Shown piece by piece: positions 6,137 to 51,769 of a DNA stretch of 64,000 nucleotides. The DNA comes from Betaproteobacteria bacterium. GTDB taxonomy: Bacteria; Pseudomonadota; Gammaproteobacteria; Burkholderiales; SG8-41. The stretch spans positions 1,582-65,581 of the forward strand of contig CANKUB010000008.1 in the NCBI GenBank assembly GCA_947486575.1, written 5' to 3'. The number at the start of each line of letters is the position of its first letter. Within the stretch, counting starts at the first letter, position 1. Below the pieces are notes generated by a model. That model was not told the DNA's origin and made no database searches. It worked only from the letters and a program-made list of their open reading frames with translations. A program made the translations under genes and the position numbers.

Positions 6137-7810
6137 GTGCCTGCCACGCAACATCGAGGGGCAGACCTGCTCGCGCGCGCCCTGTCGCGCGCGGGGGCGA
6201 GGCAGTTATTTTCGCTCTCCGGCAATCAGATCATGCCGGTGTATGACGCAGCGCTGGATGCAGGCCTCACCATCACGCACGTGCGTCACGAAGGTGCTGC
6301 GGTGCACATGGCCGATGCCTGGGGGCGACTCACCGGCGAACCGGGCATTGCACTGCTCACTGGCGGGCCGGGCCACGCCAACGGCATTGGCGCGTTGTAC
6401 ACCGCACTTGCTGCTGAATCGCCGCTGGTGATGCTCTCCGGCCACGCGCCGCTCAATCAATTGGGGCGCGGCGCGTTTCAGGAAATGGCGCAGGCCGATA
6501 TCGCCGCGCCCGTTACCAAGGCATCCTTTACGACGCGCAGCGTGGAATCCCTGGGGCACGATCTGGCACGCGCCATGCGCATCGCGCGCAGTGGCCGGCC
6601 AGGGCCGGTGCATCTGAGTTTGCCGTTTGATGTGCTTGAGCACACGGTAAAAGACCCGTACGTTTGCGCGCCGGATGAAGATGATTTTTACGCGCCCGCA
6701 CAATCGATCAGCGTGGCGCTAGCAGAAGAATTACTGGCGCAAATCAACAGAGCGAAAAGCCCGTTGATCATTGCCGGGCCAATGCTCGCCAGCAGCCGGG
6801 GGCAAAATCTGCGCGATCAACTCGCGCGTGCCACTGGCGCGCCGGTGGTGTGTATGGAAAGCCCGCGCGGCATCGCCGACCCGTGCCTGGGCGCGTTTGG
6901 CGATGTGTTGCCTGACGCTGATTTGATTGTGCTCATCGGCAAGCAAGCGGATTACACCTTGCGCTTCGCGCAGCCGCCCGCAGTGGGCAAGGCGTGCCGC
7001 TTCATCGTGGTCGACCCAGATATCAACGTGCTGCGGCAAAGTGTTGCTACCATCGGCCGCGACCGCGTGGCATTGAATGTGGTAGCGGATGTGTCGCCAT
7101 CGATACACGCACTTATCGAACGCGCTGAAAAAAATGCTTTAAAAACAAATAGTTGGATGAGCGAAGTAATAGCCGCTGTGGCGTACCGCCCGGCAGCATG
7201 GGCAAGCGCTACGGCTACGCAGGCAGGCACGCTGCACGCGCTGGAAATCGGCCGCGCGGTGCAAAAAATTCTCGATGATGCAGACGATCCGATACTCGTG
7301 GTCGATGGTGGCGAATTCGGTCAATGGGCGCAGGCTTGCATGAGCGCATCCACGCGCATCATCAACGGCCCGGCAGGTTCCATCGGCAGCGCAATACCAT
7401 TTGCGCTTGCCGCGCGTGTGGCGCGCCCGAATGCAACCGTAGTGGCGGTGCTGGGTGACGGCACGTTTGGTTTTCACATGGCCGAGTTTGATACGGCCGT
7501 GCGCCATCATCTGCCTTTTGTCGCCGTCGTTGGCAATGATTCGTGCTGGAATGCGGAGTATCAAATTCAATTGCGCACCTATGGCAACGAGCGCACCGTG
7601 GGTTGCGAGTTGTTGCCGGGGGCGGCGTACGAGAAGGCGGTTATTGCATTGGGCGGACATGGCGAGCGCGTTACCAGCGCCACTGAATTGCCGGGTGCAT
7701 TGGCGCGTGCGGTGAAAGCAAAATTGCCCGCTTGCGTAAACACCATGATTGCACGCATGCCTGCGCCGACGGTATCGCGTGCGGCTACCCCCAGTGGCGG
7801 GGCACACTAA
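6137..7810 (+). CDS. thiamine pyrophosphate-binding enzyme (acetolactate synthase large-subunit-like)
   Basis: 557 aa with a GTG start. It has the TPP N-domain (GADLLARAL...FSLSGNQIMPVYDA...HEGAAVHMADAW) and a C-terminal PP-binding motif (GDGTFGFHMAEFDTAVRHHLPFVAVVGNDSCWN). Confidence 0.85.
   Translation: MPATQHRGADLLARALSRAGARQLFSLSGNQIMPVYDAALDAGLTITHVRHEGAAVHMADAWGRLTGEPGIALLTGGPGHANGIGALYTALAAESPLVMLSGHAPLNQLGRGAFQEMAQADIAAPVTKASFTTRSVESLGHDLARAMRIARSGRPGPVHLSLPFDVLEHTVKDPYVCAPDEDDFYAPAQSISVALAEELLAQINRAKSPLIIAGPMLASSRGQNLRDQLARATGAPVVCMESPRGIADPCLGAFGDVLPDADLIVLIGKQADYTLRFAQPPAVGKACRFIVVDPDINVLRQSVATIGRDRVALNVVADVSPSIHALIERAEKNALKTNSWMSEVIAAVAYRPAAWASATATQAGTLHALEIGRAVQKILDDADDPILVVDGGEFGQWAQACMSASTRIINGPAGSIGSAIPFALAARVARPNATVVAVLGDGTFGFHMAEFDTAVRHHLPFVAVVGNDSCWNAEYQIQLRTYGNERTVGCELLPGAAYEKAVIALGGHGERVTSATELPGALARAVKAKLPACVNTMIARMPAPTVSRAATPSGGAH
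7138..7156 (+). repeat. AT-rich boundary motif, copy 4 (inside a CDS)
   Basis: TTTAAAAACAAATAGTTGG, in frame within the TPP-enzyme gene, encoding ...KNALKTNSW.... Confidence 0.75.
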
Positions 7811-7814
7811 AATT

Positions 7815-8528
7815 ATGAATACGCTCAAAGTCAAAATCTGGCGCGGTACTGAAACCGGCGAGTTTCAATCGTACGAAGTGCCGCGACTCGAAAGCCAGAC
7901 CGTGCTCGACGTGGTGACGTATGTGCAGCGTCGTTTAGACCCGTCACTCGCCTATCGCTTTGCCTGCCGCGTGGGCGTGTGCGGCTCGTGTGCGATGTCG
8001 GTCAATGGTGTGTCGCGCTGGACTTGCCGCACGCATGTGTCGAAGGTGGCGCAGGATGGCAGTCTTGAAATTGCGCCGCTGCGCAATCTGCCGGTGATCC
8101 GCGATCTGGCAACGGACATGAGCGAGTTTTTCGACAAATGGGCGAAGGCACGCGGCCAGTTCACCGGCAGCAAGACACGCAAAGATGATTTCGCGGCAGT
8201 CAATCCCGAATCCAAAGAACGCAAAAGAGTCGATGCCGCGATTGAATGCATCGGTTGTGGCGTGTGTTACAGCTCGTGTGAAGTGGTGACATGGAAGCCC
8301 GATTATCTTGGCCCGGCCGCGTTGAGCCGCGCGTGGACGCTGGTGAACGATGTGCGCGATGTGGCGCAAAAGGAGCGGTTGGCCGCGGTGGCAGGTGATG
8401 CAGGATGCCATGCGTGCCACACGCACCTGAATTGTACCGAGCGCTGTCCGAAGGGTATTTCCCCGACGGCAGGCATTGCCGGACTCAAGCGTGCGATATT
8501 GAGTGCAACGCTCAAGGGCGAGATGTAG
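7815..8528 (+). CDS. succinate dehydrogenase/fumarate reductase-type iron-sulfur subunit
   Basis: Cys clusters CRVGVCGSCAMSVNG...C, CIGCGVCYSSCE and CHACHTHLNCTERCPKGI match the 2Fe-2S plus two cubane motifs of SdhB/FrdB. Confidence 0.85.
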   Translation: MNTLKVKIWRGTETGEFQSYEVPRLESQTVLDVVTYVQRRLDPSLAYRFACRVGVCGSCAMSVNGVSRWTCRTHVSKVAQDGSLEIAPLRNLPVIRDLATDMSEFFDKWAKARGQFTGSKTRKDDFAAVNPESKERKRVDAAIECIGCGVCYSSCEVVTWKPDYLGPAALSRAWTLVNDVRDVAQKERLAAVAGDAGCHACHTHLNCTERCPKGISPTAGIAGLKRAILSATLKGEM

Positions 8529-8532
8529 CGGC

Positions 8533-8868
8533 ATGAATACGCGTTCGCAAGTGCTGCTCTGGGGCGCGCAGCGCATCAGCGCGATGCTGCTGGCGGTGTG
8601 TGTGATCGTGCACTTGATCACGATCATCTACGCCGTGCGCAACGGCTTGTCGGCGTCAGAAATTCTCGGTCGCACGCGGGGCAGCGTGGCGTGGGGTGGT
8701 TTTTACGCACTGTTTGTGATGGCTGTGGCGGTTCACGCGCCCATCGGTGTGCGCAATATCTGCGCTGAATTCGGCTGGCGCGGGCGTGGAGTGGATGTGC
8801 TGATGTTTGTGCTGGCGCTTACGCTGGCAATGTGGGGCCTGCGCGCAGTGTGGGCCGTCGTTTCGTAA
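8533..8868 (+). CDS. small hydrophobic membrane-anchor subunit of the Sdh/Frd-like complex
   Basis: 111 aa with three predicted TM stretches (ISAMLLAVCVIVHLITII, GGFYALFVMAVAVHAPIG, VLMFVLALTLAMWGL). Context follows the Fe-S subunit. No specific motif was recognised. Confidence 0.6.
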   Translation: MNTRSQVLLWGAQRISAMLLAVCVIVHLITIIYAVRNGLSASEILGRTRGSVAWGGFYALFVMAVAVHAPIGVRNICAEFGWRGRGVDVLMFVLALTLAMWGLRAVWAVVS

Positions 8869-8875
8869 CCCTTCC

Positions 8876-9232: not shown

Positions 9233-9291
9233 CTGCCGCATTGCAGCCGTAGCGAGCTTGGCGTATGGTTTGTACTCACTAAAGACGCATT

Positions 9292-9324
9292 GGTTAAATA
9301 ATGTTAAAAAACAATATATTACAT
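9292..9324 (+). repeat. AT-rich boundary motif, copy 5 (extended form, spans a start codon)
   Basis: GGTTAAATAATGTTAAAAAACAATATATTACAT. The Bug gene ATG (9301) and codons MLKNNILH lie inside the motif. Confidence 0.75.
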
Positions 9325-10275
9325 AAATTTCTTGCGGCCACGCTGCTGCTGTTGGCTGCATTTTCGGTGTTCGCGCAAAACTACCCCAGTCGCCCGGTAC
9401 GCGTCATCGTGCCGTTTCCGCCAGGTGGCGCAACTGACATTGTGGCGCGCGTGATTGGACAAAAACTGAACGATACCTGGGGCCAAACGATCGTGATCGA
9501 TAACCGCGGCGGCGCGGGCGGCAACATCGGTGGTGAAATCGCGGCAAGGTCCAACCCGGACGGCTACACCCTTTTCATGACCAGCGGTTCGATCGTTACC
9601 GCAAATCAGCACATCTATCGCAAGATGCCATTTGATCCGGAGAAAGACCTGGTTGCAGTGACGGGCGCTGCGAGCGGCCCGCAATTGATTGCCGTGAATC
9701 CCGGCTTCCCTGCAAAAACACTGAAAGACTTTATTGCTGCCGCAAAGGCCAAACCCAAAGGTTTGACCTTTGGCTCGGCGGGCTTTTCCACGCAAACGCA
9801 TTTGGCGGGAGAAAATTTCATGTATGCGGCGGGCATTGATGCCGTACATATTCCCTATAAGGGTGAAGGTCCGGCGATAACGGAGCTGGTATCGGGGCAA
9901 CTGAATTTCATGACGCCCAATATGGCGGCAGCCATTGGCTTTGTGACGCAGGGCAAGCTGCGCGGCATTGCGGTTACCAGCAAGGAACGTGTGAAACAAC
10001 TGCCCGACGTGCCCGCAGTAGCGGAAACCATTCCCGGCTTTGAAAACATCGGCTGGTTTGGCTTGATGGCGCCAACTGGCACGCCGCCTGCTGTGGTACG
10101 CAAAATTCACGAAGACACCACCAAGGCGCTGCAAGCACCGGATTTTGTGCAACGGCTGACGCAGCTGGGGATGGTGCCGTACCTGAAAGACCCGCAGGCA
10201 TTTGCCCGAACGATCAAAGAAGAATCCGCGTACTGGGCAAAGATCGTCAAAGCGCGCAACCTCGTCGTGCAGTAA
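9301..10275 (+). CDS. Bug/TctC-family tripartite tricarboxylate transporter substrate-binding protein
   Basis: Signal peptide, then YPSRPVRVIVPFPPGGATDIVARVIGQKL...GGAGGNIG...PYKG, the hallmark Bug-family pattern. Confidence 0.9.
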   Translation: MLKNNILHKFLAATLLLLAAFSVFAQNYPSRPVRVIVPFPPGGATDIVARVIGQKLNDTWGQTIVIDNRGGAGGNIGGEIAARSNPDGYTLFMTSGSIVTANQHIYRKMPFDPEKDLVAVTGAASGPQLIAVNPGFPAKTLKDFIAAAKAKPKGLTFGSAGFSTQTHLAGENFMYAAGIDAVHIPYKGEGPAITELVSGQLNFMTPNMAAAIGFVTQGKLRGIAVTSKERVKQLPDVPAVAETIPGFENIGWFGLMAPTGTPPAVVRKIHEDTTKALQAPDFVQRLTQLGMVPYLKDPQAFARTIKEESAYWAKIVKARNLVVQ

Positions 10276-10286
10276 CGGAAAGCAGC

Positions 10287-11162
10287 ATGAAAATTGACCT
10301 CCAGCAAATCGAAGATGCTTCGAAAGAAATCTACATACGCGCGCTGAAGCTGCTGCCGCCGGATATTAAAGAGGGCTTCAAACGCCTCGACGCAACGGAA
10401 ACCAATGCGACGGGCAAGGCCATACTCGGCACCATGATCCGTAATATCAAGGTAGCCGAAGCCAACACCAATCTGTTGTGCCAGGACACGGGTATTCCCA
10501 TCTACAACGTGGTAATTGGCACGGGCGTGGAAGTCGATGGTTACGCGCTGAAGCAGGCCATCATCCAAGGCTGTGCGCGCGCAACAAAAGAGCATCCGCT
10601 GCGCTCAAGCGTGGTGCACCCCACCACGCGTCAAAACGAACACACCTCGTGCGGTCGGGGCGTGCCGGTGATCAATATCGATTTCTCCAATGAAAACAAT
10701 ATGTTATCGATGGAAATGATTCCCAAGGGGTCGGGTTCTGAATTTAACTCGTGGCTGAAAATGGCGTTGCCTGCCGATGGTATCGACGCCATCAAGACCT
10801 TTGTGATTGATTGTGTGCTGGAGGCTGGTGGCAAGACGTGCCCGCCGACGATTGTCGGCGTGGGCGTGGGCGGCACGGCGGATCTGTGTGTGCATCTGTC
10901 AAAGGTGGCAGCTACCCGCGCGCTCGGAACCTCGTGCACTGATCCGGAAGGTGCCAAGCTGGAAAAAGAATTGAGCGGCGTGGTGAACAAGCTTGGCGTC
11001 GGGCCGCAGGGTTTGGGCGGTGACTCGACAGCGTTTGCCGTGCATGTGGAAACCGCCGCAACTCACATTACATTGAACCCGGTGGCGGTGAATATGCAAT
11101 GTCATTCGGCGCGTCGATCGCGCGCTACTTTCACGCCGCTGGGCTTAAGCTACGGATTCTGA
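10287..11162 (+). CDS. Fe-S type hydro-lyase alpha subunit (class I fumarate hydratase / L-tartrate dehydratase TtdA-like)
   Basis: ...LCQDTGIPIYNVVIG...PLRSSVV...IPKGSGSEFNS...CPPTIVGVGVGGTAD... matches the Fumerase N-terminal domain with conserved Cys ligands. Confidence 0.85.
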   Translation: MKIDLQQIEDASKEIYIRALKLLPPDIKEGFKRLDATETNATGKAILGTMIRNIKVAEANTNLLCQDTGIPIYNVVIGTGVEVDGYALKQAIIQGCARATKEHPLRSSVVHPTTRQNEHTSCGRGVPVINIDFSNENNMLSMEMIPKGSGSEFNSWLKMALPADGIDAIKTFVIDCVLEAGGKTCPPTIVGVGVGGTADLCVHLSKVAATRALGTSCTDPEGAKLEKELSGVVNKLGVGPQGLGGDSTAFAVHVETAATHITLNPVAVNMQCHSARRSRATFTPLGLSYGF

Positions 11163-13485: not shown

Positions 13486-13546
13486 TAACATTGTGGCGCG
13501 GCAGCTGCCAGGTAGCTGCCGGTGCAATCGCCGTCCGGTTGAATTG

Positions 13547-13570
13547 TTTAATCAATACAATCACTTATAA
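13547..13570 (+). repeat. AT-rich boundary motif, copy 6 (degenerate)
   Basis: TTTAATCAATACAATCACTTATAA (ATACAA-TCAC-TTA), ending 3 nt before the Ldh_2 ATG. Confidence 0.5.
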
Positions 13571-20423: not shown

Positions 20424-20443
20424 CATAAGCAATTGTTTTTAAA
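20424..20443 (-). repeat. AT-rich boundary motif, copy 8
   Basis: Reverse complement TTTAAAAACAATTGCTTATG, between the acyl-CoA dehydrogenase stop (20447) and the start of the binding-protein gene (20406). Confidence 0.8.
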
Positions 20444-20446
20444 CAA

Positions 20447-21631
20447 TTATTTCATGCGACGCACTGCTTTCAACCGTTGGGTGTTGTCGCCAGCGAGATG
20501 TGTCCAGATGATGCCATCGCGCACCAGCTTTTGTGTCATGGCGTCCATCATGCCTCCCCGCGCACCACTTGCGCCATGCACTGCCATGTTAAGTTTAGTG
20601 ACGCGTTGCAGTACGTCGGATGCATACGCCATGACCAGTACCGGGCTCAGCGATCCGTGCACCTTGGTGTCCATATCCCACGCAGTGCGCATGACGTACG
20701 AGCGCAGCGTTTCGGTGAGCATATGCATTTCGTGGATATTCATTTGCACAAGCTGGTGATCGTACAACGCCTTGCCCGCGCGCTTTTCTTTCTTGGCAAA
20801 CTGCATGGCGTACTCGGCTGCCGCATCACAAATGCCGAGTGCGTTGGCCGCCAGTTCAAAATCGCTGAATTCAGCGGCTACGCCACTGCGCACCTTCTGG
20901 CCCTTATGCGGTTCGCCCACCACGTTGGCGTGAGGCACGCGCGCGTTTTCGAAAATGAGTTCGGCGTTCTGATAAAAGCGCCAGCCAGCCTTGTTAAACA
21001 CCTTGCCGATGCGGAAACCCGGCGTGCCCAGCGGCACCATGAATACGGTGGTGCCTTCGCGTGCGACGACGCTGGTGTCTGAGCGCGAATTCACGAAAAA
21101 CAGTTTGCCAACCGACCCATTGGCGATAAATGTTTTTTCGCCATTCAGAATCCATTCGTCGCCCTTGCGTTCGGCCTTGACCCGAAAGCCTGAAGTCACA
21201 TCATCCGGCGGGTAGCGGTTATCGGAGCCGGAATTGGGCTCGGTACTGGCCGAGCCAATCACATACGTGTCGTCGGCGAGAAAGGGCGTGAGAAAGCGAT
21301 CCTTTTGGTCTTTGGTGCAAAACTCAGCGATCAGGTGACTCCACTTCCAGTTCTGGCTGAACGCCTTGGACATCGCGCTGTCCGCCTTGGCAAGTTCGGC
21401 CATGACGATGGCCTGGGTAACAAAATCTGCGCCCACGCCGCCCAATTCTTTGGGCACGGTGAACGTGCGAAACCCCAGCTTGGAGCCTGCCTTGATGATG
21501 TCCCAATCCCACGGTTCACGGCCGCCTTCAATCTGGTCGCGCTTGAGCGATGCCGGCAGCAGCACTTCCCTGGCGAAATGGCGGGCCTCGTTTTTCCAGC
21601 GGCTTTGTTCTTCGTTTAGTGCGAAATCCAT
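20447..21631 (-). CDS. acyl-CoA dehydrogenase family protein
   Basis: 394 aa with ACAD N, middle and C domain patterns (...GSASTEPNSGSD...FIANG...GGTDAM-type C-terminal helices). Confidence 0.9.
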   Translation of the reverse strand: MDFALNEEQSRWKNEARHFAREVLLPASLKRDQIEGGREPWDWDIIKAGSKLGFRTFTVPKELGGVGADFVTQAIVMAELAKADSAMSKAFSQNWKWSHLIAEFCTKDQKDRFLTPFLADDTYVIGSASTEPNSGSDNRYPPDDVTSGFRVKAERKGDEWILNGEKTFIANGSVGKLFFVNSRSDTSVVAREGTTVFMVPLGTPGFRIGKVFNKAGWRFYQNAELIFENARVPHANVVGEPHKGQKVRSGVAAEFSDFELAANALGICDAAAEYAMQFAKKEKRAGKALYDHQLVQMNIHEMHMLTETLRSYVMRTAWDMDTKVHGSLSPVLVMAYASDVLQRVTKLNMAVHGASGARGGMMDAMTQKLVRDGIIWTHLAGDNTQRLKAVRRMK

Positions 21632-24545: not shown

Positions 24546-26618
24546 ATGAGCAAGATATTTGTAGGCATCGATACAGGTGGCACATTTACTGATTTGGTGG
24601 CGGCCGATCTCGACGACGGGCGCTATTGCTATCACAAGGTTCCCACCACTACCGGCGATCCAGCGCGCGGTATTCTGGAAGGCATAGCCGAGTTGCTTGA
24701 TCAGAATAGCCTCGCGCGCAAGGATGTCGCGTTTCTGGTGTTGGGCACAACGCTCGCAACCAATGCCGTACTTGAAGGCAAGTGGGCCGCCACAGGGTTA
24801 ATCACAACCGCTGGTTTTCGTGATGTGCTGGAACTTGCGCGGCAGCGCCGCCCGCATTATTTCAATCTCGATATTCCCAAGCCGATGCCGCCCACTGCGC
24901 GTGATTGCCGTCTGGAGGTCAGCGAAAGAGTGGCGGCGGACGGTACGGTTGTCACACCACTGATGGAAGCTGATGTCCGTCGTGCGGTGGAGATTTTGAA
25001 GGCAAAGAAAGTCGAAGCGGTGGCTATTTGTTTTATGCACGCTTACGCCAATGCGGATCACGAAGAACGCGCCCGCGCGCTGGTGAAATCGCTGTGGCCC
25101 GACATTTACTTGTGCACGTCAAATGAAGTGCTGGGTGAGTTTCGTGAATTCGAGCGATTTTCGACGGCGACAGTCAATGCCAGCCTGATGCCGATCATGG
25201 ATCGGTATATGGAGCACTTTGAGCGAGGCGTCGCTGACCTTGGTATACCGCACACGCCGCGCGTGATGCAGTCCAACGGCGGGGCGGTGTCGCCGGGGGC
25301 GGTGCGCAAGCTGCCGGTGAATACTTTCTTTTCGGGCCCCGCGGGTGGTGTGATTGGGAGCGTGGGCCTGAGCCGCCAGCTAAAGGCTCCGAACCTGATT
25401 ACCTTTGACATGGGCGGCACGTCCACGGATGTGTGCCTGATTCGCGATGGCGAGCCCGCCAAGAAAAGCGAACGTCAGATGGGCGGATTCCCCGTGCGCA
25501 CGCGGACGCTGGACATTCATACCATCGGCGCGGGCGGCGGATCGATTGCCTGGATCGATGCGGGCGGTCTGCTCAAAGTGGGGCCGCAAAGTGCGGGCGC
25601 CTATCCGGGCCCAGCGGCCTACGGTCGTGGTGGTACCAAGGCAACCGTGACCGATGCCAATGTGGTGCTGGGGCGTTTGAGTCCGAAATCTTTGCTCGGC
25701 GGGCGCATGGCCATGCATCCCGACAAGGCCCATGCGGCCATTGATGAGCTTGCCACATCGTTGCGCGTGGACGCGGTGAAAGCGGCGGCCGGCGTCATAG
25801 AAATCATCAACGTCAATATGATGGGTGCGGTGCGTGTGATATCGGTTGAGCAGGGCGAAGATCCGCGCGATTTCACGCTGGTGGCGTTTGGCGGTGCCGG
25901 GCCGCTGCATGCCGCAGACGTGGCGCGCAATATGGGTATGGGCAAGGTGCTGGTGCCGCCACGGCCGGGGCTGCTGTCGGCGATTGGTTTGCTGCATGCG
26001 GATGTACGCGGCGATTTCAGCCTGACACGTTTGCTGCGCGCAGAAGGCGCTAATGTGAAGGCGTTCAACGCAGGCCTTGCCGATTTGAAGAAGCGCGGCG
26101 CGGAATGGCTGCGCGGGGAAAACAAAAGTGAGGGCGAAAGCAAAGCCAGGTTTGAGTGGTTTGTCGATCTGCGCTACTTCGGGCAAAACTTTGAATTGAT
26201 TATGCCGCTGGCGCAGGAGCGCCTGACAGCGGCGAATCTTGCGCGCCTGAGCAGTGCATTTCACAAGCGGCACAAAGCCTTTTACGGTTATGACATGCCG
26301 GCGCAGCCGGTGGAAATTGTCAATCTGCGGCTGGTCGTCACGGCAGCGCGCAAGGCGCCAGTCGCTGCGAAAATTAGTAAAAAAACTTTTTTAAAACAAA
26401 TAGTTAAACAGAGTCGCCGAGTATGGTTTCCCGAGACGGGGTTTGTGCAGACGCCGGTGTATGAGCGCGATCAGTTGCCTGCGGACTGGCGCGCGACGGG
26501 GCCGGCGATCATCGAACAGATGGATGCGACCACCGTGGTGCCTCCCAAGGCGACTATTCATAACGATACGTTGGGGTATTTGCATATGACGTTAGCTGTC
26601 GATGGGCGAGGCAAGTGA
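24546..26618 (+). CDS. hydantoinase/oxoprolinase family protein, A subunit
   Basis: MSKIFVGIDTGGTFTDLVA...DMGGTSTDV...GGGSIAW... is the HyuA/acetone-carboxylase-beta-type ATPase fold. Confidence 0.9.
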   Translation: MSKIFVGIDTGGTFTDLVAADLDDGRYCYHKVPTTTGDPARGILEGIAELLDQNSLARKDVAFLVLGTTLATNAVLEGKWAATGLITTAGFRDVLELARQRRPHYFNLDIPKPMPPTARDCRLEVSERVAADGTVVTPLMEADVRRAVEILKAKKVEAVAICFMHAYANADHEERARALVKSLWPDIYLCTSNEVLGEFREFERFSTATVNASLMPIMDRYMEHFERGVADLGIPHTPRVMQSNGGAVSPGAVRKLPVNTFFSGPAGGVIGSVGLSRQLKAPNLITFDMGGTSTDVCLIRDGEPAKKSERQMGGFPVRTRTLDIHTIGAGGGSIAWIDAGGLLKVGPQSAGAYPGPAAYGRGGTKATVTDANVVLGRLSPKSLLGGRMAMHPDKAHAAIDELATSLRVDAVKAAAGVIEIINVNMMGAVRVISVEQGEDPRDFTLVAFGGAGPLHAADVARNMGMGKVLVPPRPGLLSAIGLLHADVRGDFSLTRLLRAEGANVKAFNAGLADLKKRGAEWLRGENKSEGESKARFEWFVDLRYFGQNFELIMPLAQERLTAANLARLSSAFHKRHKAFYGYDMPAQPVEIVNLRLVVTAARKAPVAAKISKKTFLKQIVKQSRRVWFPETGFVQTPVYERDQLPADWRATGPAIIEQMDATTVVPPKATIHNDTLGYLHMTLAVDGRGK
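26388..26409 (+). repeat. AT-rich boundary motif, copy 9 (inside a CDS)
   Basis: TTTTTAAAACAAATAGTTAAAC within a roughly 40 nt AT-rich patch of hyuA, in frame, encoding ...KISKKTFLKQIVKQS.... Confidence 0.8.
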
Positions 26619-29598: not shown

Positions 29599-29619
29599 GT
29601 AAGTATTTGTTTTTATTAT
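29599..29619 (-). repeat. AT-rich boundary motif, copy 10
   Basis: Reverse complement ATAATAAAAACAAATACTTAC. It fills the 20 nt gap between the aminotransferase stop and the ThrC-like ATG. Confidence 0.8.
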
Positions 29620-30760
29620 GAAATATGTAGACCCCGTTAGTGGCGTTACATACGCCGCAGATAGCGCTCGCTGGTGCTCGGACACTGGCGGCTACCTCAA
29701 TCTAACGCCGGGTGCCGGATTAAAGCGCGGCGACATTAATACCGCTCGCCATTCTGTCTGGCGCTACGCCAAAGCGATCGGGGTGGATGAAAAACATGCA
29801 GTAACCATGGGCGAAGGCTGGACGCCATTAACGTGCGGTGAATGGCATGGCACGCCTTTGATGTTCAAGCTCGAATTCATGATGCCGACGGGTTCGTTCA
29901 AGGATCGCGGCATGACGGTGATGGTGAGCTACCTGAAAAGTTGTGGTCTCGATCACGTGCTGGAAGACTCGTCGGGCAACGCGGGCGCATCTTTGTCAGC
30001 GTATGCAGCCGCTGCGGGCATGCGTTGCCGTATCCTTGTGCCGGAAACGGCGTCATACCCCAAAATTGCGCAGATCGCAGCCTGCGGCGCAGACGTGGTG
30101 ACCATACGCGGCACGCGGCAGGATGTGGCGGATACCGCCATGCGCATGAGCAAGGAAATTTTTTATGCCAGCCACAACTGGCAGCCGTTTTTTGCCGAGG
30201 GCACCAAAACGGTGGCGTATGAATTATGGGAGCAGTTGGGCTTCAAGGCGCCGGACAATGTGATTGTGCCGCTGGGTTACGGCAGCAATGTCGCGGGTTG
30301 CGCCATCGGGTTCGGCGAATTGCTGCGCAATGGTGAAATAACAAAAATGCCGCGTATTTTTGGCGTGCAGGCAGCTAATTGCGCGCCGTATTACAACGCG
30401 TTCAAGGCGGGCGTGGATCACCTGGTGCCGACCACGGTTACGTCGACGATCGCAGAAGGCATCGCGTCGTCTAAGCCGACACGCGTGGTGGAAGCGTTGC
30501 GCGCGGTGCGCGATTCCGGCGGCAGTATCGTTGCTGTTACCGAGGAAGAAATCGTGACGGCGCTGGGTACGCTCGCGCGCAAAGGGCTTTATGTTGAACC
30601 GACTTCGGCTGCGGCGGGTGCGGGGCTGACGCAATTGCTGGCCAGCGGTGTGATCAGGCCCGGAGAATCCACAGTGCTGGTGCTGACGGGGACGGGATTA
30701 AAGGCGTCGGAGCGGATTGGGGAGTTATTGGGATTGAAAGCGCGCGATTTGAAGGGGTAG
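29618..30760 (+). CDS. threonine synthase-like PLP-dependent enzyme (beta-family fold)
   Basis: ...MPTGSFKDRGMTV...EDSSGNAGASLSAYAAAAG...TGTGLK... are tryptophan-synthase-beta-family motifs of the short ThrC type. Confidence 0.8.
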   Translation: MKYVDPVSGVTYAADSARWCSDTGGYLNLTPGAGLKRGDINTARHSVWRYAKAIGVDEKHAVTMGEGWTPLTCGEWHGTPLMFKLEFMMPTGSFKDRGMTVMVSYLKSCGLDHVLEDSSGNAGASLSAYAAAAGMRCRILVPETASYPKIAQIAACGADVVTIRGTRQDVADTAMRMSKEIFYASHNWQPFFAEGTKTVAYELWEQLGFKAPDNVIVPLGYGSNVAGCAIGFGELLRNGEITKMPRIFGVQAANCAPYYNAFKAGVDHLVPTTVTSTIAEGIASSKPTRVVEALRAVRDSGGSIVAVTEEEIVTALGTLARKGLYVEPTSAAAGAGLTQLLASGVIRPGESTVLVLTGTGLKASERIGELLGLKARDLKG

Positions 30761-32067: not shown

Positions 32068-32555
32068 TGGCGCATGTTATCGACGAACGGCTTGCAAATC
32101 TGGGCGTGATACTGCCGGCTGCACCAGCACCCGCCGCAAATTATTTGCCGTACATCCTCTCGGGCAATCAGCTGCTGATTGCCGGGCAGGCGGCAGTGGT
32201 GGATGGCAAGCACCTGTTTGTCGGGCGGCTGGGTGCGGAAGTGTCCGTGGCTGATGGCAGACAAGCCGCGCAACGAGCGGCGATCAATGTGCTCGCGCAG
32301 GTGAAGGCGGCGTGTTTTGGCGACTGGAATAAATTGACGCGCTGTCTGCGGATTTGCGGGTATCTCAATGCAACGCCCGCGTTTGCGGAGCATCCGCAGG
32401 TGCTCGATGGCGCTTCGGATTTTTTGGTGGCGGCGTTGGGTGATGCCGGTAAGCACGTGCGCACCGTGTTGGGCGCGTCATCGTTGCGCAGCAGTACAGC
32501 GGTGGTAATCGATGCCGTATTCGAAGTGAGGATAGACGTAAGTAATTGTTTTTAA
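32067..32555 (+). CDS. RidA/YjgF-family protein
   Basis: ...LPAAPAPAANYLPYILSGNQLLIAGQ...GRLG...RTVLGASSL... The ATG at 32067 shares its A with the preceding TGA (TGATG). Confidence 0.8.
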   Translation: MAHVIDERLANLGVILPAAPAPAANYLPYILSGNQLLIAGQAAVVDGKHLFVGRLGAEVSVADGRQAAQRAAINVLAQVKAACFGDWNKLTRCLRICGYLNATPAFAEHPQVLDGASDFLVAALGDAGKHVRTVLGASSLRSSTAVVIDAVFEVRIDVSNCF

Positions 32556-32559
32556 ATAG
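32538..32559 (-). repeat. AT-rich boundary motif, copy 11 (supplies C-terminal codons and stop)
   Basis: Reverse complement CTATTTAAAAACAATTACTTAC. On the + strand it encodes ...VSNCF-TAA, the tail of the RidA gene. Confidence 0.8.
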
Positions 32560-32564
32560 TTTTT

Positions 32565-38210: not shown

Positions 38211-38741
38211 ATGCGATTGACTGACGACGGGCTTATCTGCGGTGATGGCGTGCGCCATGTGGCGTCGCCCAATTGCGATACACGACCGGTTGATGCGCAG
38301 ATCGAGTTGATCGTCGTGCATAACATCAGTTTGCCGCCGGGTGAGTTTGGCGGGTCGGGCATTGTCGATTTGTTTCTCAATCGCTTGCAGCCGCACGGGC
38401 ATGCGTACTATGCCGGTATCGCGCATCTCAGGGTGTCAGCGCATTTTTTGATACGGCGCGATGGCGAGTTGATTCAGTTCGTGTCGTGCGCACAGCGCGC
38501 CTGGCATGCAGGCGTATCGAGCTGGCGGGGGCGCGAACGCTGCAACGATTTTTCGCTGGGTATCGAACTGGAAGGTACCGATGAAATTCCGTTCGAGGAT
38601 GCGCAATACACGCGCCTGCGCGCACTGATCGCCCTGTTGCGGACCCACTATCCCATTGCGGATGTCCAAGGCCATGCCGACGTAGCGCCGGGACGCAAAA
38701 CTGATCCGGGTCCGGCATTTGATTGGTTAAGAGTTAAATAG
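38211..38741 (+). CDS. ampD: 1,6-anhydro-N-acetylmuramyl-L-alanine amidase AmpD
   Basis: ...IVVHNISLPPGEFGG...SAHFLIRRDGELIQFV...AWHAG.S.W.GR..CNDFSLGIELEG...GHADVAPGRKTDPGP.FDW are canonical AmpD/amidase_2 motifs. Confidence 0.9.
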   Translation: MRLTDDGLICGDGVRHVASPNCDTRPVDAQIELIVVHNISLPPGEFGGSGIVDLFLNRLQPHGHAYYAGIAHLRVSAHFLIRRDGELIQFVSCAQRAWHAGVSSWRGRERCNDFSLGIELEGTDEIPFEDAQYTRLRALIALLRTHYPIADVQGHADVAPGRKTDPGPAFDWLRVK

Positions 38742-38764
38742 TCAATTAAAACAATTGGTTATAG
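38733..38764 (+). repeat. AT-rich boundary motif, copy 12 (extended form)
   Basis: GTTAAATAGTCAATTAAAACAATTGGTTATAG. It overlaps the ampD stop codon TAG. Confidence 0.85.
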
Positions 38765-43791: not shown

Positions 43792-44112
43792 GTGGCCATT
43801 AGCCTGAAAAACCGACGTTATTTTTCGCGTAGCCGTCGCACCGCCCAGCGTACCGTAACCGAGTTACGCGCCGAGCGCGATTACATGCTGTGGCTTAAAT
43901 TCGATGATGGCGTTGAAGGCTGTGTTTATTTGGGCGACTTAATGGCGACAGAGGCCTACGGCGCGCGCGTTAATGAAAATGATTTTTTCAAGGTGGTGGT
44001 CGATCCCCTATCGCAAGCTGTGATGTGGGAAGGCGGCGTGCATCTGGACGCGGATTTGCTCTACCGCAATCTTGCCAGTCAAACCAGCCACGGTAGCGCG
44101 CCAGTGCATTAG
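43792..44112 (+). CDS. DUF2442-like small protein
   Basis: ...ERDYMLWLKFDDGVEGCVYLGDL...WEGGVHLDADLLY resembles DUF2442. Start chosen at GTG 43792, preceded by GGAGG. The ORF track begins at TTG 43738. Confidence 0.55.
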   Translation: MAISLKNRRYFSRSRRTAQRTVTELRAERDYMLWLKFDDGVEGCVYLGDLMATEAYGARVNENDFFKVVVDPLSQAVMWEGGVHLDADLLYRNLASQTSHGSAPVH

Positions 44113-44166
44113 ACGTAATTTTGTCCCGTGAATGACGTAATCCGAACTCACCTGACGGAGCATCGC

Positions 44167-44514
44167 ATGGCAAAAGCAGCGAAAAAATCAGGTAAAACGA
44201 CAGGCAAAAAAGCGAACAATACCGCGAGCAAGAAAAAATCCGCCAAGAAAAAGCCGGTAGCGAAAGCAGCCAAAAAATCGCCCAGCCGAAAATCCTCGAC
44301 GAAAAAAAAGCCGGCTAAGAAGCCGGCTGGAAGAAAAGCAGCAAAGAAAAAAACAGCTAAATCTGCATCAAATCCTGCATCCCAAAGGCGCCCGGCGAAA
44401 ACTCCTGTAACAAAGTCAGCAATAGCCCCCGTTACAACAGTTATGACGCCTGCAGCGCCCAGACCAGTCGCCGTGCCCAGCGCATGGCCATTTCCTATGG
44501 CCAGTAAACCGTAG
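44167..44514 (+). CDS. histone H1-like Lys/Ala/Pro-rich nucleoid-associated protein
   Basis: MAKAAKKSGKTTGKKANNTASKKKSAKKKPVAKAAKKSPSRKSSTKKKPAKKPAGRKAAKKKTAK... has AKKA/KKP repeats, as in bacterial H1/AlgP/BpH-type proteins. The antisense ORF 44148-44639 is a low-complexity shadow. Confidence 0.7.
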   Translation: MAKAAKKSGKTTGKKANNTASKKKSAKKKPVAKAAKKSPSRKSSTKKKPAKKPAGRKAAKKKTAKSASNPASQRRPAKTPVTKSAIAPVTTVMTPAAPRPVAVPSAWPFPMASKP

Positions 44515-44623
44515 CTACCGCTACGTTCAATTGTCAGGCGACTTTCCCGGAGGAAGGCCGCCGCCAAATCGCGCGTCGCGGGTGCGTGACCAGCGGTCAG
44601 CAGGGAGCCAAAGATACCCAATC

Positions 44624-44653
44624 TGCCCGGCACGGGCAAGGTACATATTTTTT
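44624..44653 (+). terminator. weak candidate terminator after the H1-like gene
   Basis: TGCCCG-gca-CGGGCA stem. The T-run (TTTTTT) starts about 9 nt downstream, so this is atypical. Confidence 0.3.
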
Positions 44654-44687
44654 ATCGTCAGTATGCATTTGTAGAATTTAAATTTTA

Positions 44688-44711
44688 TATAATAAAAACA
44701 TATACTTATAT
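44688..44711 (+). repeat. AT-rich boundary motif, copy 14
   Basis: TATAATAAAAACATATACTTATAT in the AT-rich intergenic region upstream of phnD. A weaker second copy, GTTAAAAACTTCTGTATG, follows at 44720-44737. Confidence 0.7.
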
Positions 44712-44965
44712 AATTTTAAGTTAAAAACTTCTGTATGATAGTGTGCACACACTAATAATTTGGCAAGCCAAACATAGACGCTGCGGCAATACGCTTGACC
44801 ACTTTATATGCGCTGAGTAGAGTAGCCTTCGTCCTCGCACCATCACCGGCATTCACGCGAATATGGATTTTAAAAATCGCAAGTAACTCGCATTAACATG
44901 CGTTTACCCAAATTTGCGTTCTGTGCACTACTCACATTTCGTACCAACGTTCAAGAGGTAATTCG

Positions 44966-48469: not shown

Positions 48470-48510
48470 TTTATCCACAAAGCGCGTGACCCATCTGCCC
48501 GGAACTTTGC

Positions 48511-49158
48511 ATGGCACAAAACCACTATTCCGATATGCCTGATGTAGCCCTGAAAGACTGGCGTAAATCCGAGCGGGCGCGGCTGATCGCGGCTCGTGTG
48601 GCGCTGGATGCTTCGCACATGTCGCGTTTGCGTGTGGCGATGGATGCGCATCTCGAACGGGCATTTCCGATGCTGGCCACAGGCACTGTCGCCTTTTGCT
48701 GGCCCTATCGCAATGAGTATGATGCGCGCCATCTCATGCACCGGATGCGCGCTCGCGGTGCCCGCACGGCGCTGCCCGTGGTTATCGGCAGCAAACAACC
48801 GTTGATTTTTCGCTACTGGCAGCCCGGTGATGTTTTGGCCAAAGGCGTATACGACATTCCCTACCCCCCCAATGGCGAGGCCATTGTGCCCGATGTGGCG
48901 CTGGTGCCGATGAACGGCTTCGATACGGGTGGATACCGGCTGGGGTATGGCGGCGGATTTTTCGACCGCACGCTGGCCTCGTTAAGCGCTGGCGGCCTGA
49001 CACGTCCACTCGCTATCGGTGTTACTTACGAACTCGCGCGTATGGAAACCATACACCCGCAGCCGTACGACATACCAATGGATTATGTAGTGACGGAGCG
49101 CGGCGTGTATGAACGCCGCGCAAGCGGGTTGCGGTTGACTGAAACCGGTACTACCTGA
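48511..49158 (+). CDS. 5-formyltetrahydrofolate cyclo-ligase family protein
   Basis: ...WRKSERARLIAARVAL...VALVPMNGFDTGGYRLGYGGGFFDRTL is the 5-FTHF cyclo-ligase C-terminal signature. Confidence 0.8.
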   Translation: MAQNHYSDMPDVALKDWRKSERARLIAARVALDASHMSRLRVAMDAHLERAFPMLATGTVAFCWPYRNEYDARHLMHRMRARGARTALPVVIGSKQPLIFRYWQPGDVLAKGVYDIPYPPNGEAIVPDVALVPMNGFDTGGYRLGYGGGFFDRTLASLSAGGLTRPLAIGVTYELARMETIHPQPYDIPMDYVVTERGVYERRASGLRLTETGTT

Positions 49159-50452
49159 GCGGCGCTTTGCCTGAAGCAATATCCATGATCATGCGCGTGG
49201 CGAGATACAGTCGCGGCTCGATGGATGAAATCACAATGTATTCGGCGTTGGTGGTGTGCGCACCAAATCCCTGCAGGCCGAAGCCCTCGACCACCGGATT
49301 ATTGGTTTTGAGTCCCGCGAACGCGGCATCGGTGCCGCCGCCGCGCGGCTCGTCGTCCGCCTTGATCTTGTAACCCACTTCGGCGGCGACCTTCTGCCCG
49401 TAGTGCGCCAGTGCGAGCGAGGCGGGCTTGGCTTCCAACGGCGGGCGGCCCCGCTCGAAGTTCAGTTCCACCTGCGCCTGCGGCAAGAGCTTGTTCTTGA
49501 TGCGTTCCTTTAACTTGGCCTCGATGCCATCGAGGTCCTGCACGCGCAGTACGCGGATATTCATGGTCGCTTGCGCGCCGGGCGGAATCATATTGCGTAC
49601 GAGGCCGCCTTGCGCCAGCACCCAGTTCGCGCGCAAGCCAATTTTTGCATCGGAGAGATCACGCGATTGCAGTATCTGGTGCGCGAGCTCATCCACCGCG
49701 TTGATGCCTAAATGCGGCGCGCTGCCCGAGTGTGCCGCGCGTCCGCGCACGGTGATGGTGGCGTTAGCGCTACCGCTGGTGGCGACGGACAGTATCGCCT
49801 GCTGCGGTGTGCCGCCGCCTTCGAACGACAGCGTCGCATCATGCTCCGCGCCGAGACGAGCAAGCACGTGGCGCGAAGCGGGCGAACCCACTTCCTCGTC
49901 GGCCGTCACCAGCACGGTGAGCGTGCCGTAGTCGCGGAAATTCAGCACGTTCAACATCGTCATCGTGTGCAAGATCAGCGCCATGCCCTGGCGGTTATCG
50001 GCGATGCCCAGTCCGTAGGCGCGATCGCCGTCGATCTTGTACGGCTGGCCGGCGAGCATGCCCTTGCGATAGACCGTATCCATGTGCGCCAGCAGCAGAA
50101 TTTTTTTCGTGCCCGTGCCAGTAAACGTGGCGCGTAGCGTGCGGCCGATTTTCTCCGGCGAGCCGCTGTCGCGCGTGGCTTCCGCGTTGCCGTCGATCAT
50201 GTCGACCTTGGCACCGAGTTGGGTAAAGCGTCTGGTGAGCGCCGCGCCGATCTGTTCAAGCCCTTCGAGTTCGTAGCTGCCGGATTCGATTTGAACCAGT
50301 TCTTTTAGCGTGTCGAGCAGCAACGGCTTCTCTTTTTGCGCGAGCTTCTGCACGGCATCCATCGCCAGTGCGGGTGTGGCGAGGCCAGCGCCCAGCCACA
50401 AGACTGCCGCCAGAACTCTTACGTAACTTTTTGATTTAAAGATATTTTTCAT
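49151..50452 (-). CDS. M20-family glutamate carboxypeptidase (carboxypeptidase G2-like), secreted
   Basis: Signal peptide, then LLLAHMDTVY, GLGIADNRQG, ADEEVGSP, GGGTDA. Start set at ATG 50452 (the ORF-track TTG at 50461 is 3 codons upstream). Confidence 0.85.
   Translation of the reverse strand: MKNIFKSKSYVRVLAAVLWLGAGLATPALAMDAVQKLAQKEKPLLLDTLKELVQIESGSYELEGLEQIGAALTRRFTQLGAKVDMIDGNAEATRDSGSPEKIGRTLRATFTGTGTKKILLLAHMDTVYRKGMLAGQPYKIDGDRAYGLGIADNRQGMALILHTMTMLNVLNFRDYGTLTVLVTADEEVGSPASRHVLARLGAEHDATLSFEGGGTPQQAILSVATSGSANATITVRGRAAHSGSAPHLGINAVDELAHQILQSRDLSDAKIGLRANWVLAQGGLVRNMIPPGAQATMNIRVLRVQDLDGIEAKLKERIKNKLLPQAQVELNFERGRPPLEAKPASLALAHYGQKVAAEVGYKIKADDEPRGGGTDAAFAGLKTNNPVVEGFGLQGFGAHTTNAEYIVISSIEPRLYLATRMIMDIASGKAPLR
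50422..50441 (-). repeat. AT-rich boundary motif, copy 16 (inside the signal-peptide codons)
   Basis: Reverse complement CTTTAAATCAAAAAGTTACG (AATCAA-AAAG-TTA), encoding ...FKSKSY... at codons 6-11 of the first M20 peptidase. Confidence 0.55.
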
Positions 50453-50479
50453 TTGTCGCAACCTTTGCAGTGTTGGCGT

Positions 50480-51769
50480 TTACTTAAGGGGTGCCTTGCC
50501 GCTCGAAATATCCATGATCATGCGCGTGGCCAGATACAAACGTGGCTCAATTGAATTCATGAATATGAATTCGGCGTTGGTGGTGTGCGAGCCGAAGCCG
50601 TGCAGGCCAAAGCCTTCGATGACCGGCGCAGTCGTTTTTAGAGAAGCATTGGCCGCGTCAGTAAAGCCGCCCGAAGCATCTTCCAGCACGGCAAGCTTAC
50701 GCCCCAGTTCGCCATAGATGGTTTGCGCGTGCGCAGCGAGTACGCGTGACGTGGGTTTGGGCTCCAGCGGCGGAAAGCGGCGTTCGAAGACGAGTTCGAC
50801 TGATGATTCCGGCAGCAGCTTGTTCTTGACGCGCTCTTTAAGTTTTTGTTCGATACCGTCGTAATCGACGATACGCGCCACGCGCACATCGGCTTGTGCC
50901 TGTGCGCCGGGCGGAATCATGTTGATAACGATGCCCGCGCGTGACAGCGTCCAGTTTACTTTCACGCCAGTTGCCGGATCGGACAAATTGCGCATTTGAA
51001 TGATCTGATGCGACAGTTCCTCCAGCGCATTGATGCCTTGTTCGGGTGCGGCACCCGCATGCGAGGCGCGTCCGCGCACATTGAGCATGGCAATGGCGTG
51101 TCCGCTGGTGGCAAGACGCACGCGATCTTCCTTTTCATTGCCGCCACCCTCAAAGGACATCACGGCATCGTGGGCGGCGCCCAGCCGCATGTGGTGATTG
51201 CGTGCACCGGGCGAACCTATTTCTTCGTCGGCATTGATGAACACGGTGATGGTGCCGTAGTCGCGAAATTTCATGGCGTTAAGCATGGTGATCGTGTGCA
51301 GTATCATCGCGACACCGTGGCGATTGTCCGCAATGCCCAGACCATAGGCGCGATCGCCCTCGATTTTGAACGGTTGCTGTTTGGCCATGCCGCGCGGGTA
51401 CACGGTATCCATGTGCGCCATCAGCATGATCTTCTTCGTTCCCGTGCCGGTAAAAGTAGCCTTCACCATCTTGCCGATCTTTTCAGGCGTGTCAGACAGG
51501 CGCACGGTGTCCGATTCCACCGGCTCGATCAGTTCGACCTTGCCGCCGAGCGACTGTAGGCGTTTGGCGATATCGTTGGCGATCTTGTCGAGTTCTTCGA
51601 GTTCGCGGCTGCCGGATTCAAACGCCACCAGCGCCTTCAGCGTGTCCATCAATGCCGGTTTTTCTTTTTGCGCCAGCGACCACACCGGCTCGAGTGGTGC
51701 GCCGCGAGCAGCGCTTGCCGCAAACCAAAGGAAGGCGACACAACCTATTGTTTTAATTAATTTTTTCAT
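50480..51769 (-). CDS. M20-family glutamate carboxypeptidase (carboxypeptidase G2-like), secreted; tandem paralog
   Basis: Alignable end to end with the neighbouring M20 gene (MLMAHMDTVY, GLGIADNRHG, ADEEIGSP). Start set at ATG 51769 (MKKLIKTIG...). Confidence 0.85.
   Translation of the reverse strand: MKKLIKTIGCVAFLWFAASAARGAPLEPVWSLAQKEKPALMDTLKALVAFESGSRELEELDKIANDIAKRLQSLGGKVELIEPVESDTVRLSDTPEKIGKMVKATFTGTGTKKIMLMAHMDTVYPRGMAKQQPFKIEGDRAYGLGIADNRHGVAMILHTITMLNAMKFRDYGTITVFINADEEIGSPGARNHHMRLGAAHDAVMSFEGGGNEKEDRVRLATSGHAIAMLNVRGRASHAGAAPEQGINALEELSHQIIQMRNLSDPATGVKVNWTLSRAGIVINMIPPGAQAQADVRVARIVDYDGIEQKLKERVKNKLLPESSVELVFERRFPPLEPKPTSRVLAAHAQTIYGELGRKLAVLEDASGGFTDAANASLKTTAPVIEGFGLHGFGSHTTNAEFIFMNSIEPRLYLATRMIMDISSGKAPLK
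51739..51760 (-). repeat. AT-rich boundary motif, copy 17 (inside the signal-peptide codons)
   Basis: Reverse complement TTAATTAAAACAATAGGTTGTG, encoding ...LIKTIGC... at codons 4-10 of the second M20 peptidase. Confidence 0.75.

Follow-up and report, generated by a model that had tools for sequence, protein, structure and literature searches.

A 26-nucleotide AT-rich motif at gene boundaries and within coding sequences of a freshwater betaproteobacterial clade

A recurrent motif at gene boundaries

We analyzed a 64 kb stretch of DNA (the window) from contig CANKUB010000008.1 of an uncultured betaproteobacterium, which has a GC content of 57% and is ~89% coding by a rough greedy tiling of open reading frames (ORFs). 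Its genes include the rpsP-rimM-trmD-rplS operon, a thiamine pyrophosphate (TPP) enzyme, Bug/TctC genes, hydantoinase A and a tandem pair of M20 peptidases, and at gene boundaries, as well as inside a few genes, lies the recurrent AT-rich motif that is the subject of this study. Gene families were assigned by Pfam, which confirmed all those named in an earlier note on this DNA. The note had described motif copies lying in frame inside coding sequences, and the coordinates, peptides and stop codons that it quoted were all found in the sequence. As far as our literature searches reached, neither the lineage nor the motif has been described before.

Alignment of the copies revealed a non-palindromic unit of ~26 nt, consisting of an A-tract (AAAAA), a spacer of ~5 bases, frequently TTGTT or TCAAT, and then TWAAAACAAWTASTTA; outside these 26 nt the information drops to background. 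Position counts within the motif were taken from 73 copies from relatives. Over motif positions −4 to 0 the spacer takes two forms, ...TTGTTTAAAAAC..., which contains a short TTGTTT/AAACAA inverted repeat, and ...TCAATWAAAAC..., and at position −2 a G is present in 28/73 copies and a C in 24/73.

Over-representation was measured with the 15-mer TTAAAACAAATAGTT, allowing ≤3 mismatches, against dinucleotide shuffles. The window holds 16 matches where 0.57 are expected, and no shuffle reached 16. A 26-nt position weight matrix (PWM) made from the copies of this 15-mer returned 29 sites at ≥14 bits, compared with 0.45 in block shuffles, and 22 copies at ≥20 bits in the 64 kb; the latter are referred to as strong copies and the former as the wider site list. 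One member of the wider list, a 14-bit match at 25022 on the minus strand inside hydantoinase A, is probably a chance match. The matrix also recovered copies that the earlier note had missed, namely a weak intragenic one (10681-10706) and boundary copies at 3519, 13542, 46038, 54331, 57782 and 61878. Motif statistics draw on the 64 kb plus related loci, and L-numbers denote the genome loci of relatives that were compared with the window.

By PWM strand, 15/22 strong copies lie on the plus and 7/22 on the minus strand. Ten overlap stop codons, four overlap starts (Bug 9296, PALP 29600, M20 50424 and M20 51741), six are purely intergenic and two lie deep in genes. Hence 16/22 overlap a coding sequence, yet only two are deep inside one, and because ~89% of the window is coding, the motif strongly favors gene boundaries. 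It is present at roughly one in three gene junctions of the window, in convergent, tandem and divergent spacers alike and in both orientations. By our own tally, ~14 copies are co-oriented with the adjacent gene and 7 anti-oriented; at gene 3′ ends the corresponding counts are 8 and 6.

The 22 strong copies with their flanks have no hairpin potential (the z-score of the minimum free energy, MFE, averages +0.27), the motif matches no Rfam family and no tRNA is found near it. Between window positions 1 and 40000, promoter-like (sigma-70) and intrinsic-terminator-like sites do not exceed shuffled sequence (6 vs 10.4, 11 vs 11.0, 19 vs 26.3 and 27 vs 26.7), and no such site in the first 40 kb is tied to the motif, which is the sole conspicuous intergenic signal of this part of the window. 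The corresponding scan of outgroup loci for promoters and terminators was uninformative.

Because copies occur in all spacer types, inside genes and in both orientations, the motif is unlikely to serve as a promoter, directional terminator, translation signal or gene-specific operator. Individual candidates were rejected on separate grounds: hairpin or palindromic elements were ruled out by the mean MFE z of +0.27, a directional terminator by the absence of a consistent orientation at gene 3′ ends, and a translation signal by antisense copies and variable register. A gene-specific regulator is unlikely given the copies in convergent spacers and beside unrelated housekeeping and catabolic genes, in agreement with the earlier note, which had not seen an ordinary regulatory site here.

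Motif copies inside hydantoinase A and the TPP enzyme

The two deep copies are read through in frame as the peptide patches ...AAKISKKTFLKQIVKQSRR in hydantoinase A and ...ERAEKNALKTNSWMSE in the TPP enzyme, as previously noted. The TPP patch does fall in a linker: it spans residues 331-340, after the end of TPP_enzyme_M at residue 326 and before the start of TPP_enzyme_C at 390.

For hydantoinase A, we compared the 120 closest orthologs at the protein level and DNA from 80 genome loci. The protein alignment (76–100% identity) shows no gap at the patch. Motif DNA is found at the same codons in most (~16) of 18 clade loci (79–89% protein identity) and is degraded in L012 and L017; examples from relatives are ...CAAAAACAAATAGTTA..., ...TTAAAACAATTACTTA... 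and ...AAAAACATATAGTTA.... The string AAAACAnnnnnTTA is kept while the encoded residues vary between KQIV, KQIL, KQLV, KHIV, KQLL and KQMV. Orthologs of ≤78% identity instead have CTG AAG CAG GCG CTG ATC GAA AAG (LKQALIEK) at this place. The ancestral Leu-Lys-Gln codons CTG AAG CAG have become TTA AAA CAA, which is synonymous, and, judged by the outgroup codons, the first half of the motif core came from synonymous changes on Leu-Lys-Gln and the second half from altering Ala-Leu-Ile. Across 19 genomes, GC content at third codon positions (GC3) is 0.07 inside the copy vs 0.70 in its flanks; majority identity is higher inside than in the flanks at third positions (0.84 vs 0.68) and lower at the amino-acid level (0.63 vs 0.87).

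The TPP enzyme provides a comparable picture. Clade members (71–98% identity) encode (I/L)K(T/S)N(S/T)(W/Y) by ...AATAAAAACAAATACTTA..., and the motif DNA is kept in 9 clade loci; outgroup enzymes read ...ARDLKGTGW... from GC-rich codons. The linker differs by 0-2 codons, and its length varies among outgroups too. In 10 sequences, GC3 is 0.14 inside the copy vs 0.62 in the flanks, third-position majority identity 0.72 vs 0.59 and amino-acid majority identity 0.63 vs 0.71. The far lower GC3 of both patches relative to their flanks accords with the earlier description of AT-rich patches. In predicted structures, both patches are coil. That of the TPP enzyme (model pLDDT 84) lies between helices 319-329 and 339-349 at a dip in pLDDT; that of hydantoinase A lies between strands 589-602 and 620-628 in a low-confidence model, poor overall (pLDDT 52.5), that was relied on for its better C-terminal domain only.

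The motif is read in each of its three forward frames, and inside genes only frame-compatible versions exist, as the earlier note had proposed. The frame read as KQIV avoids the stop codons of the motif by T1 → C, or by TTA; the KNK frame avoids them by G13 → C, or by ATAT. In coding copies, T1 or G13 is changed to C precisely where the frame would otherwise contain TAA or TAG.

Outgroup orthologs do not carry the motif, which supports the earlier proposal that it was acquired after the genes existed. The accompanying expectation of a clean 18–40 nt insertion relative to orthologs was not borne out in hydantoinase A, the TPP enzyme or M20, where orthologs of 63–100% identity match the patches in length or differ from them by no more than 2 codons of a variable linker. 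A likeness to Rickettsia palindromic elements (RPEs) had also been suggested, and their mechanism is contradicted: there is no clean insertion and no hairpin, the unit is 26 nt and codons are replaced in place. With regard to the peptides, the earlier note had linked their occurrence with GC-rich codons in diverse taxa to ancestral segments and a coincidental nucleotide similarity. The segments are indeed ancestral, but the residues are partly rewritten and the motif is conserved in the clade, so the similarity is not coincidental.

Since the motif is clade-conserved while amino acids vary and distant orthologs are GC-rich, we infer that it was written by substitution under selection on DNA; these sequence comparisons make an in-place, DNA-selected origin very probable. 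The motif arose after the genes by point substitutions in place, synonymous where possible and otherwise altering the amino acid. These changes lie in tolerant segments, namely inter-domain loops, charged signal-peptide starts, C-terminal tails and short spacers, and the DNA has since kept its place and direction although the residues it encodes have drifted.

Gene starts, gene ends and distribution in the clade

The three signal-peptide starts in which the motif had been noticed, those of the Bug/TctC gene at 9301 (MLKNNILHKF) and of the M20 genes at 51769 and 50452, were all verified (Table 1). M20 orthologs of the clade start with MKxxLKTNTY, encoded by TTAAAAACAAATACTTAT, and outgroup signal peptides are of similar length without such a start. 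The M20 motif DNA at +4, 3 nt past the ATG, was confirmed in L161-L163. The tandem M20 paralogs of the window (49151-51769) are 59% identical, and in both the motif begins 3 nt past the ATG; a tandem pair is present in L163 too, with the copy of the second gene in the same register, and L161 and L162 have a single M20 gene. The ATG of the Bug gene lies within the motif, in the same register, in L082, L083, L084, L086 and L087. Clade Bug/TctC genes (window 9280-9300; L082-L087) have no Shine-Dalgarno sequence and the motif stands in its place, compared with a GGAGG 6-8 nt upstream of the ATG in outgroup orthologs (L088-L091, L096 and others).

At gene ends, the reported Ldh_2 (VKSI-TAA), RidA-like (VSNCF-TAA) and HAD (stop 54743-54745) termini were likewise present. 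The RidA-like protein reads through the motif as DVSNCF in the window and NVNTCF in L016, and in L008 and L010 it stops 6-7 residues earlier at the TTA of the motif (TAA on the other strand). Ldh_2 of L087 and L015 ends ...VKIL-TAA inside the motif, and outgroup proteins end otherwise, with TGA; the HAD and Ldh_2 ends behave like the RidA-like tails. The motif seems to 'donate' tails and stops because ORFs that enter it end at whichever TAA or TAG is in frame. The acyl-CoA dehydrogenase calls for a correction. Its end MK-TAA is present as reported, but for the copy near 20438 the minus strand (20426-20451) gives the better score. In relatives the gene end RRMK-stop is identical, with the motif 20 nt further downstream and TAG as the stop; because RRMK is kept where the motif is displaced, its last codons are not motif-derived. 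At the end of the rpsP-rimM-trmD-rplS operon, outgroup loci (L092, L095, L099, L106, L107 and L111) have a hairpin terminator, GGCGGCGCGAGCCGCC followed by a T-run; in the window (3520-3560) the motif is present and there is no hairpin.

Relatives that carry the motif at the same codons share ~70–90% protein identity and are all freshwater metagenome-assembled genomes (MAGs) of uncultured Betaproteobacteria, the clade members coming from lakes and groundwater. At least 12 window sites recur in relatives with junction and orientation unchanged, and most of the intergenic copies keep their place and direction across the clade. In the aminotransferase/PALP spacer, only the motif can be aligned and its flanks cannot. 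Density in clade loci ranges from 0.05 to 0.3 per kb, with copies also beside genes that are not in the window, and the motif is absent from ~60 outgroup loci, several of which have 56–62% GC. Among the lake MAGs, L009, L010, L012, L017, L020 and L059 include several with the record title 'Bordetella parapertussis' and others with Streptomyces; these titles are evidently mislabeled, to judge by loci syntenic with unclassified Betaproteobacteria MAGs.

Sites also differ between relatives. The copies at nrdA/nrdB and at the PhnD stop are found in the window only, and the absence of the nrdA-stop copy from L161-L163 indicates that it undergoes turnover. Copies at the 3′ end of the PrpD/MmgE gene occur in L012 (8239-8264), L017 (8227-8252) and L003 (2690-2715), with none there in the window. 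L012 and L017 have lost the hydantoinase copy and carry the PrpD/MmgE-end copy 1.75 kb away. The latter may compensate for the loss; we do not count this as evidence (Fisher p ~0.03, calculated by hand, with L012 and L017 probably representing one lineage).

Table 1 Copies of the motif in the window, with PWM strand and score
Position	Strand	Bits	Location	Relatives and remarks
289..314	+	31.4	Intergenic, 3 nt from start of gene 1-285(-)	5 nt from stop of nitroreductase gene 320-1177(-)
1203..1228	+	40.7	Divergent region upstream of rpsP operon	S16 by Pfam
3519..3544	+	31.2	Convergent spacer; A-tract holds TAA stop of rplS (L19)	
4580..4605	-	17.6	Weaker copy upstream of gene 4627-4908	Stronger counterparts, same place and orientation, in L083 and L087
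7130..7155	+	35.9	Deep in TPP enzyme (6137-7810), read EKNALKTNSW	
9296..9321	+	22	Holds ATG and first 7 codons of Bug/TctC gene 9301-10275	
10681..10706	+	14.8	Weak intragenic copy in fumarate hydratase alpha (10287-11162)	25.6 bits at identical codon offset (394 nt) in L087 (8133-8158)
13542..13567	+	20.5	Intergenic, 5 nt upstream of Ldh_2 start	Kept in L086, L087
14571..14596	+	35.6	Gives last codons of Ldh_2 (VKSI) and TAA stop	
20426..20451	-	33.9	Directly after acyl-CoA dehydrogenase stop, TAA in A-tract	Kept in L006, L007, L013, L015; shifted ~20 nt in two of these
26381..26406	+	42.1	Deep in hydantoinase A (24546-26618), read KKTFLKQIVK	
29600..29625	-	33.2	Fills 20-nt gap between aminotransferase stop and PALP-enzyme start, overlaps ATG	Same orientation in 10 loci
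32539..32564	-	37.5	RidA-like tail DVSNCF-TAA on opposite strand	9 nt before next TctC gene
38736..38761	+	36.7	Overlaps Amidase_2 gene stop	Kept in L162
42262..42287	+	39.4	Begins at nrdA stop	Absent in L161-L163
44683..44708	+	31.9	AT-rich intergenic region 44.1-45.0 kb	Counterpart in same PhnD/DUF2442 spacer of L161-L163
46038..46063	+	31.4	Overlaps stop of phosphonate-binding protein gene	
50424..50449	-	33.7	Codons 2-10 of M20 peptidase 49151-50452 (MKNIFKSKSY)	3 nt after ATG
51741..51766	-	35.0	Codons 2-10 of M20 peptidase 50480-51769 (MKKLIKTIGC)	
54331..54356	-	29.8	Intergenic	Core AATCAATCATTTA is an exact match to WATCAANNNNTTR
54720..54745	+	36.8	3′ TTA is opposite-strand TAA stop of HAD gene	Kept in L161, L162
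57782..57807	+	32.9	Intergenic, between PEP-mutase-like and TauD genes	Kept in L161, L162
60491..60516	+	38.5	Begins at MazF stop, 13 nt before next gene	
61878..61903	-	24.3	Overlaps GDSL lipase gene stop	Same gene end in L162

The AT-rich region around the copy at 44683 (44100-44960) has a GC content of 0.485, no confident gene or Pfam match, and one strong and two weak overlapping PWM matches. Two toxin genes lie in the window, encoding a PIN-domain (VapC-like) protein (53155-53583) and MazF/PemK (60166-60492), the stop of the latter adjoining a motif copy.

Candidate readers and biological meaning

These comparisons indicate that the motif serves as a chromosomal DNA signal, functional and confined to a single freshwater betaproteobacterial clade. 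As to what reads it, an IHF-type (DNABII) DNA-bending nucleoid protein is the leading candidate, which we put forward only tentatively from resemblance to the binding site of integration host factor (IHF). A canonical IHF site has four elements: a 5′ A-tract of 4-6, AA/TT steps nine bp apart, WATCAA and TTR (PMC1874591). The motif has a counterpart to each of the four, WATCAA being perfect in a minority of copies only, in the register of the lambda attP H′ site, the sequence of which was taken from PMC2709558 (WATCAANNNNTTR plus a 5′ A-tract). Its A-tract of 5-6 nt lies at −10 to −5, a W-W step at −1/0 precedes A8-A9 by nine bp, the core is [A/T]A[A/T]CAA, and TTR stands four bp beyond. The spacing of the A-tract equals that of lambda H′, as confirmed by the string AAAAAAGCATTGCTTATCAA, and the best register of the PWM on lambda H′ is the predicted one. 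Motif T14 is present in 70/73 copies and T15 in 72/73, and position 16, the R of TTR, is A in 64 and G in 6. Position 6 is A in 55 and T in 18 of the 73 copies; T yields a perfect WATCAA, and the window copies at 3519, 50424 and 54331 have ATCAA. Sites of this type would put a fixed, sharp bend at every gene boundary, and their role would be architectural as opposed to gene-specific regulation. The small conserved ORF 4627-4908 beside one copy was checked as a possible HU/IHF gene and has no Pfam match.

Several observations weigh against an IHF-type reader or against an origin by substitution throughout. The majority core is AAACAA, with A and not T, and thus has one mismatch to WATCAA. Lambda H′ scores just 1.9 bits with the PWM (p = 0.03 vs shuffles), the likeness being confined to the consensus elements, and because of this weak similarity we do not claim membership in the IHF-site family. 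Positions 1-5 (TWAAA) and 10-13 (ATAS) are also conserved, so that the information exceeds what E. coli IHF requires. IHF is moreover ancient and near-universal in Proteobacteria, and the motif is limited to one clade. It also differs from an IHF site in that dozens of almost identical copies stand alone, at gene boundaries and within genes. With respect to origin, clade spacers exceed those of the outgroup in length (20-100 nt vs 0-12 nt between the aminotransferase and PALP genes, for example), and the purely intergenic copies may have originated by small insertions.

The longer spacers are among the points in favor of the earlier note's proposal of a small mobile or copy-and-paste element, RPE-like or akin to a miniature inverted-repeat transposable element (MITE), of which only frame-compatible insertions survived; the younger age of the motif relative to the genes, and the extra 6-7 residues of RidA-like tails whose frame runs on through it, can be read in the same way. 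For coding copies this proposal is contradicted, since none of the tested copies, whether deep in genes or near their starts, is a clean insertion. M20 signal peptides are similar in length with or without the motif, there is no hairpin and no conservation past 26 nt, and three reading frames converge on one degenerate consensus by different codon changes, leaving insertion as very improbable. RPEs are palindromic insertions of 100-150 bp that are missing from orthologs. The motif resembles them in that it is translated in frame within proteins, at places where the structure tolerates it, but it is 26 nt long, free of hairpins and swaps ancestral codons one for one. The repetitive extragenic palindromes and bacterial interspersed mosaic elements (REP/BIME) with IHF sites of E. 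coli (RIB/RIP), and the Correia elements of Neisseria, are organized around palindromic units or terminal inverted repeats and can move or duplicate. Like the motif, they are intergenic, often at gene 3′ ends or between cistrons, and lineage-specific, and they are IHF-associated where the motif is IHF-like by sequence; in contrast to them, the motif is stand-alone, non-palindromic and, in coding DNA, built by substitution. Palindromic units, terminal inverted repeats and the copy-by-descent flanks of REP/BIME or MITE families are all absent from it.

An AU-rich element acting at the RNA level, either in Shine-Dalgarno-independent, S1-dependent initiation or in RNase E processing between cistrons, would account for the four copies that overlap start codons and for the loss of the GGAGG Shine-Dalgarno from clade Bug genes, and most tandem copies must indeed be transcribed in polycistronic mRNAs. 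Yet about one third of the copies are antisense to flanking genes, including the conserved PALP and RidA copies, others sit in convergent spacers, and the register to the ATG differs between genes. The sequence-specific conservation far exceeds AU-richness, and with neither structure nor an Rfam match, we regard an RNA element as hardly plausible.

The other likeness suggested earlier, to coding-region uptake signal sequences (USS), fits well. USS of Pasteurellaceae and the DNA uptake sequences (DUS) of Neisseriaceae are short, asymmetric, clade-specific and present in both orientations, and are over-represented by orders of magnitude, all of which applies to the motif. Coding USS and DUS originate by point mutation in place, at poorly conserved residues, and skew the local peptide composition (Findlay and Redfield 2009, PMC2817400); the coding copies of the motif, too, are written in place at poorly conserved residues, with copies at homologous positions in relatives. 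In such a system, biased uptake and recombination would fix mutations toward the motif, a form of molecular drive, wherever coding constraints allow. The information content, which is above what the site frequency requires, and the turnover of sites between relatives, including L012 and L017, also suit an uptake signal. A PilS-like kinase and a PilR-like sigma-54 activator, regulators of type IV pili, are encoded at 35091-38176 of the window but are not diagnostic. Several differences make this explanation rather unlikely: ~10% of the copies lie deep in genes, as opposed to 34–65% for known uptake sequences (PMC2817400), and density is 0.05–0.37 per kb vs ~0.4–0.9, as we calculate from the counts in PMC2817400 and approximate genome sizes. 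The motif is also AT-rich in a 57–60% GC genome, longer at 26 nt and concentrated at boundaries. Known uptake sequences are confined to Pasteurellaceae and Neisseriaceae, whereas the host lineage is outside both families and a link of the motif to competence is hypothetical; the register match to the IHF consensus would in addition become a coincidence.

The motif could instead be read by another sequence-specific DNA-binding protein, or act as a structural signal, that is new in the clade and unrelated to IHF; examples would be a nucleoid protein peculiar to the lineage, an insulator or roadblock for transcription, or a mobile-element protein that has been domesticated. The restriction to one clade and the high information suit a new reader better than an old one. 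The motif dominates intergenic conservation where promoter- and terminator-like sites do not exceed shuffle expectation, and it occupies the rplS operon end where the outgroup has a hairpin terminator. However, such a reader has no known candidate protein, the mixed orientations at gene 3′ ends (8 vs 6) speak against a directional terminator, and the match to the IHF elements is left unexplained. We therefore consider such a reader unlikely, if by no means far-fetched.

Whatever reads it, the phenomenon is a genome-wide DNA signal imprinted on coding sequence. It offers a clean natural case in which selection on a DNA motif overrides selection on protein, with a 26-nt signal kept at the same codons in ~20 genomes despite changing residues, and with three reading frames that each found their own stop-free way to encode it. 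An in-frame repeat inside a gene does not, on its own, imply insertion. It is conceivable, though somewhat doubtful, that a DNA code extending across the genome has evolved in the clade. Such a code would be the first system of uptake signals beyond Pasteurellaceae and Neisseriaceae, or else a new system in which a nucleoid protein marks boundaries. If so, it would occupy roughly one in three of the window's gene junctions, replace Shine-Dalgarno regions and terminators, and rewrite enzymes and signal peptides. The motif may also serve as a sequence tag for DNA of the clade in metagenomes, and the identity of its reader, be it an IHF-type bending protein, an uptake receptor or something novel, would show how streamlined uncultured genomes organize or exchange their DNA.

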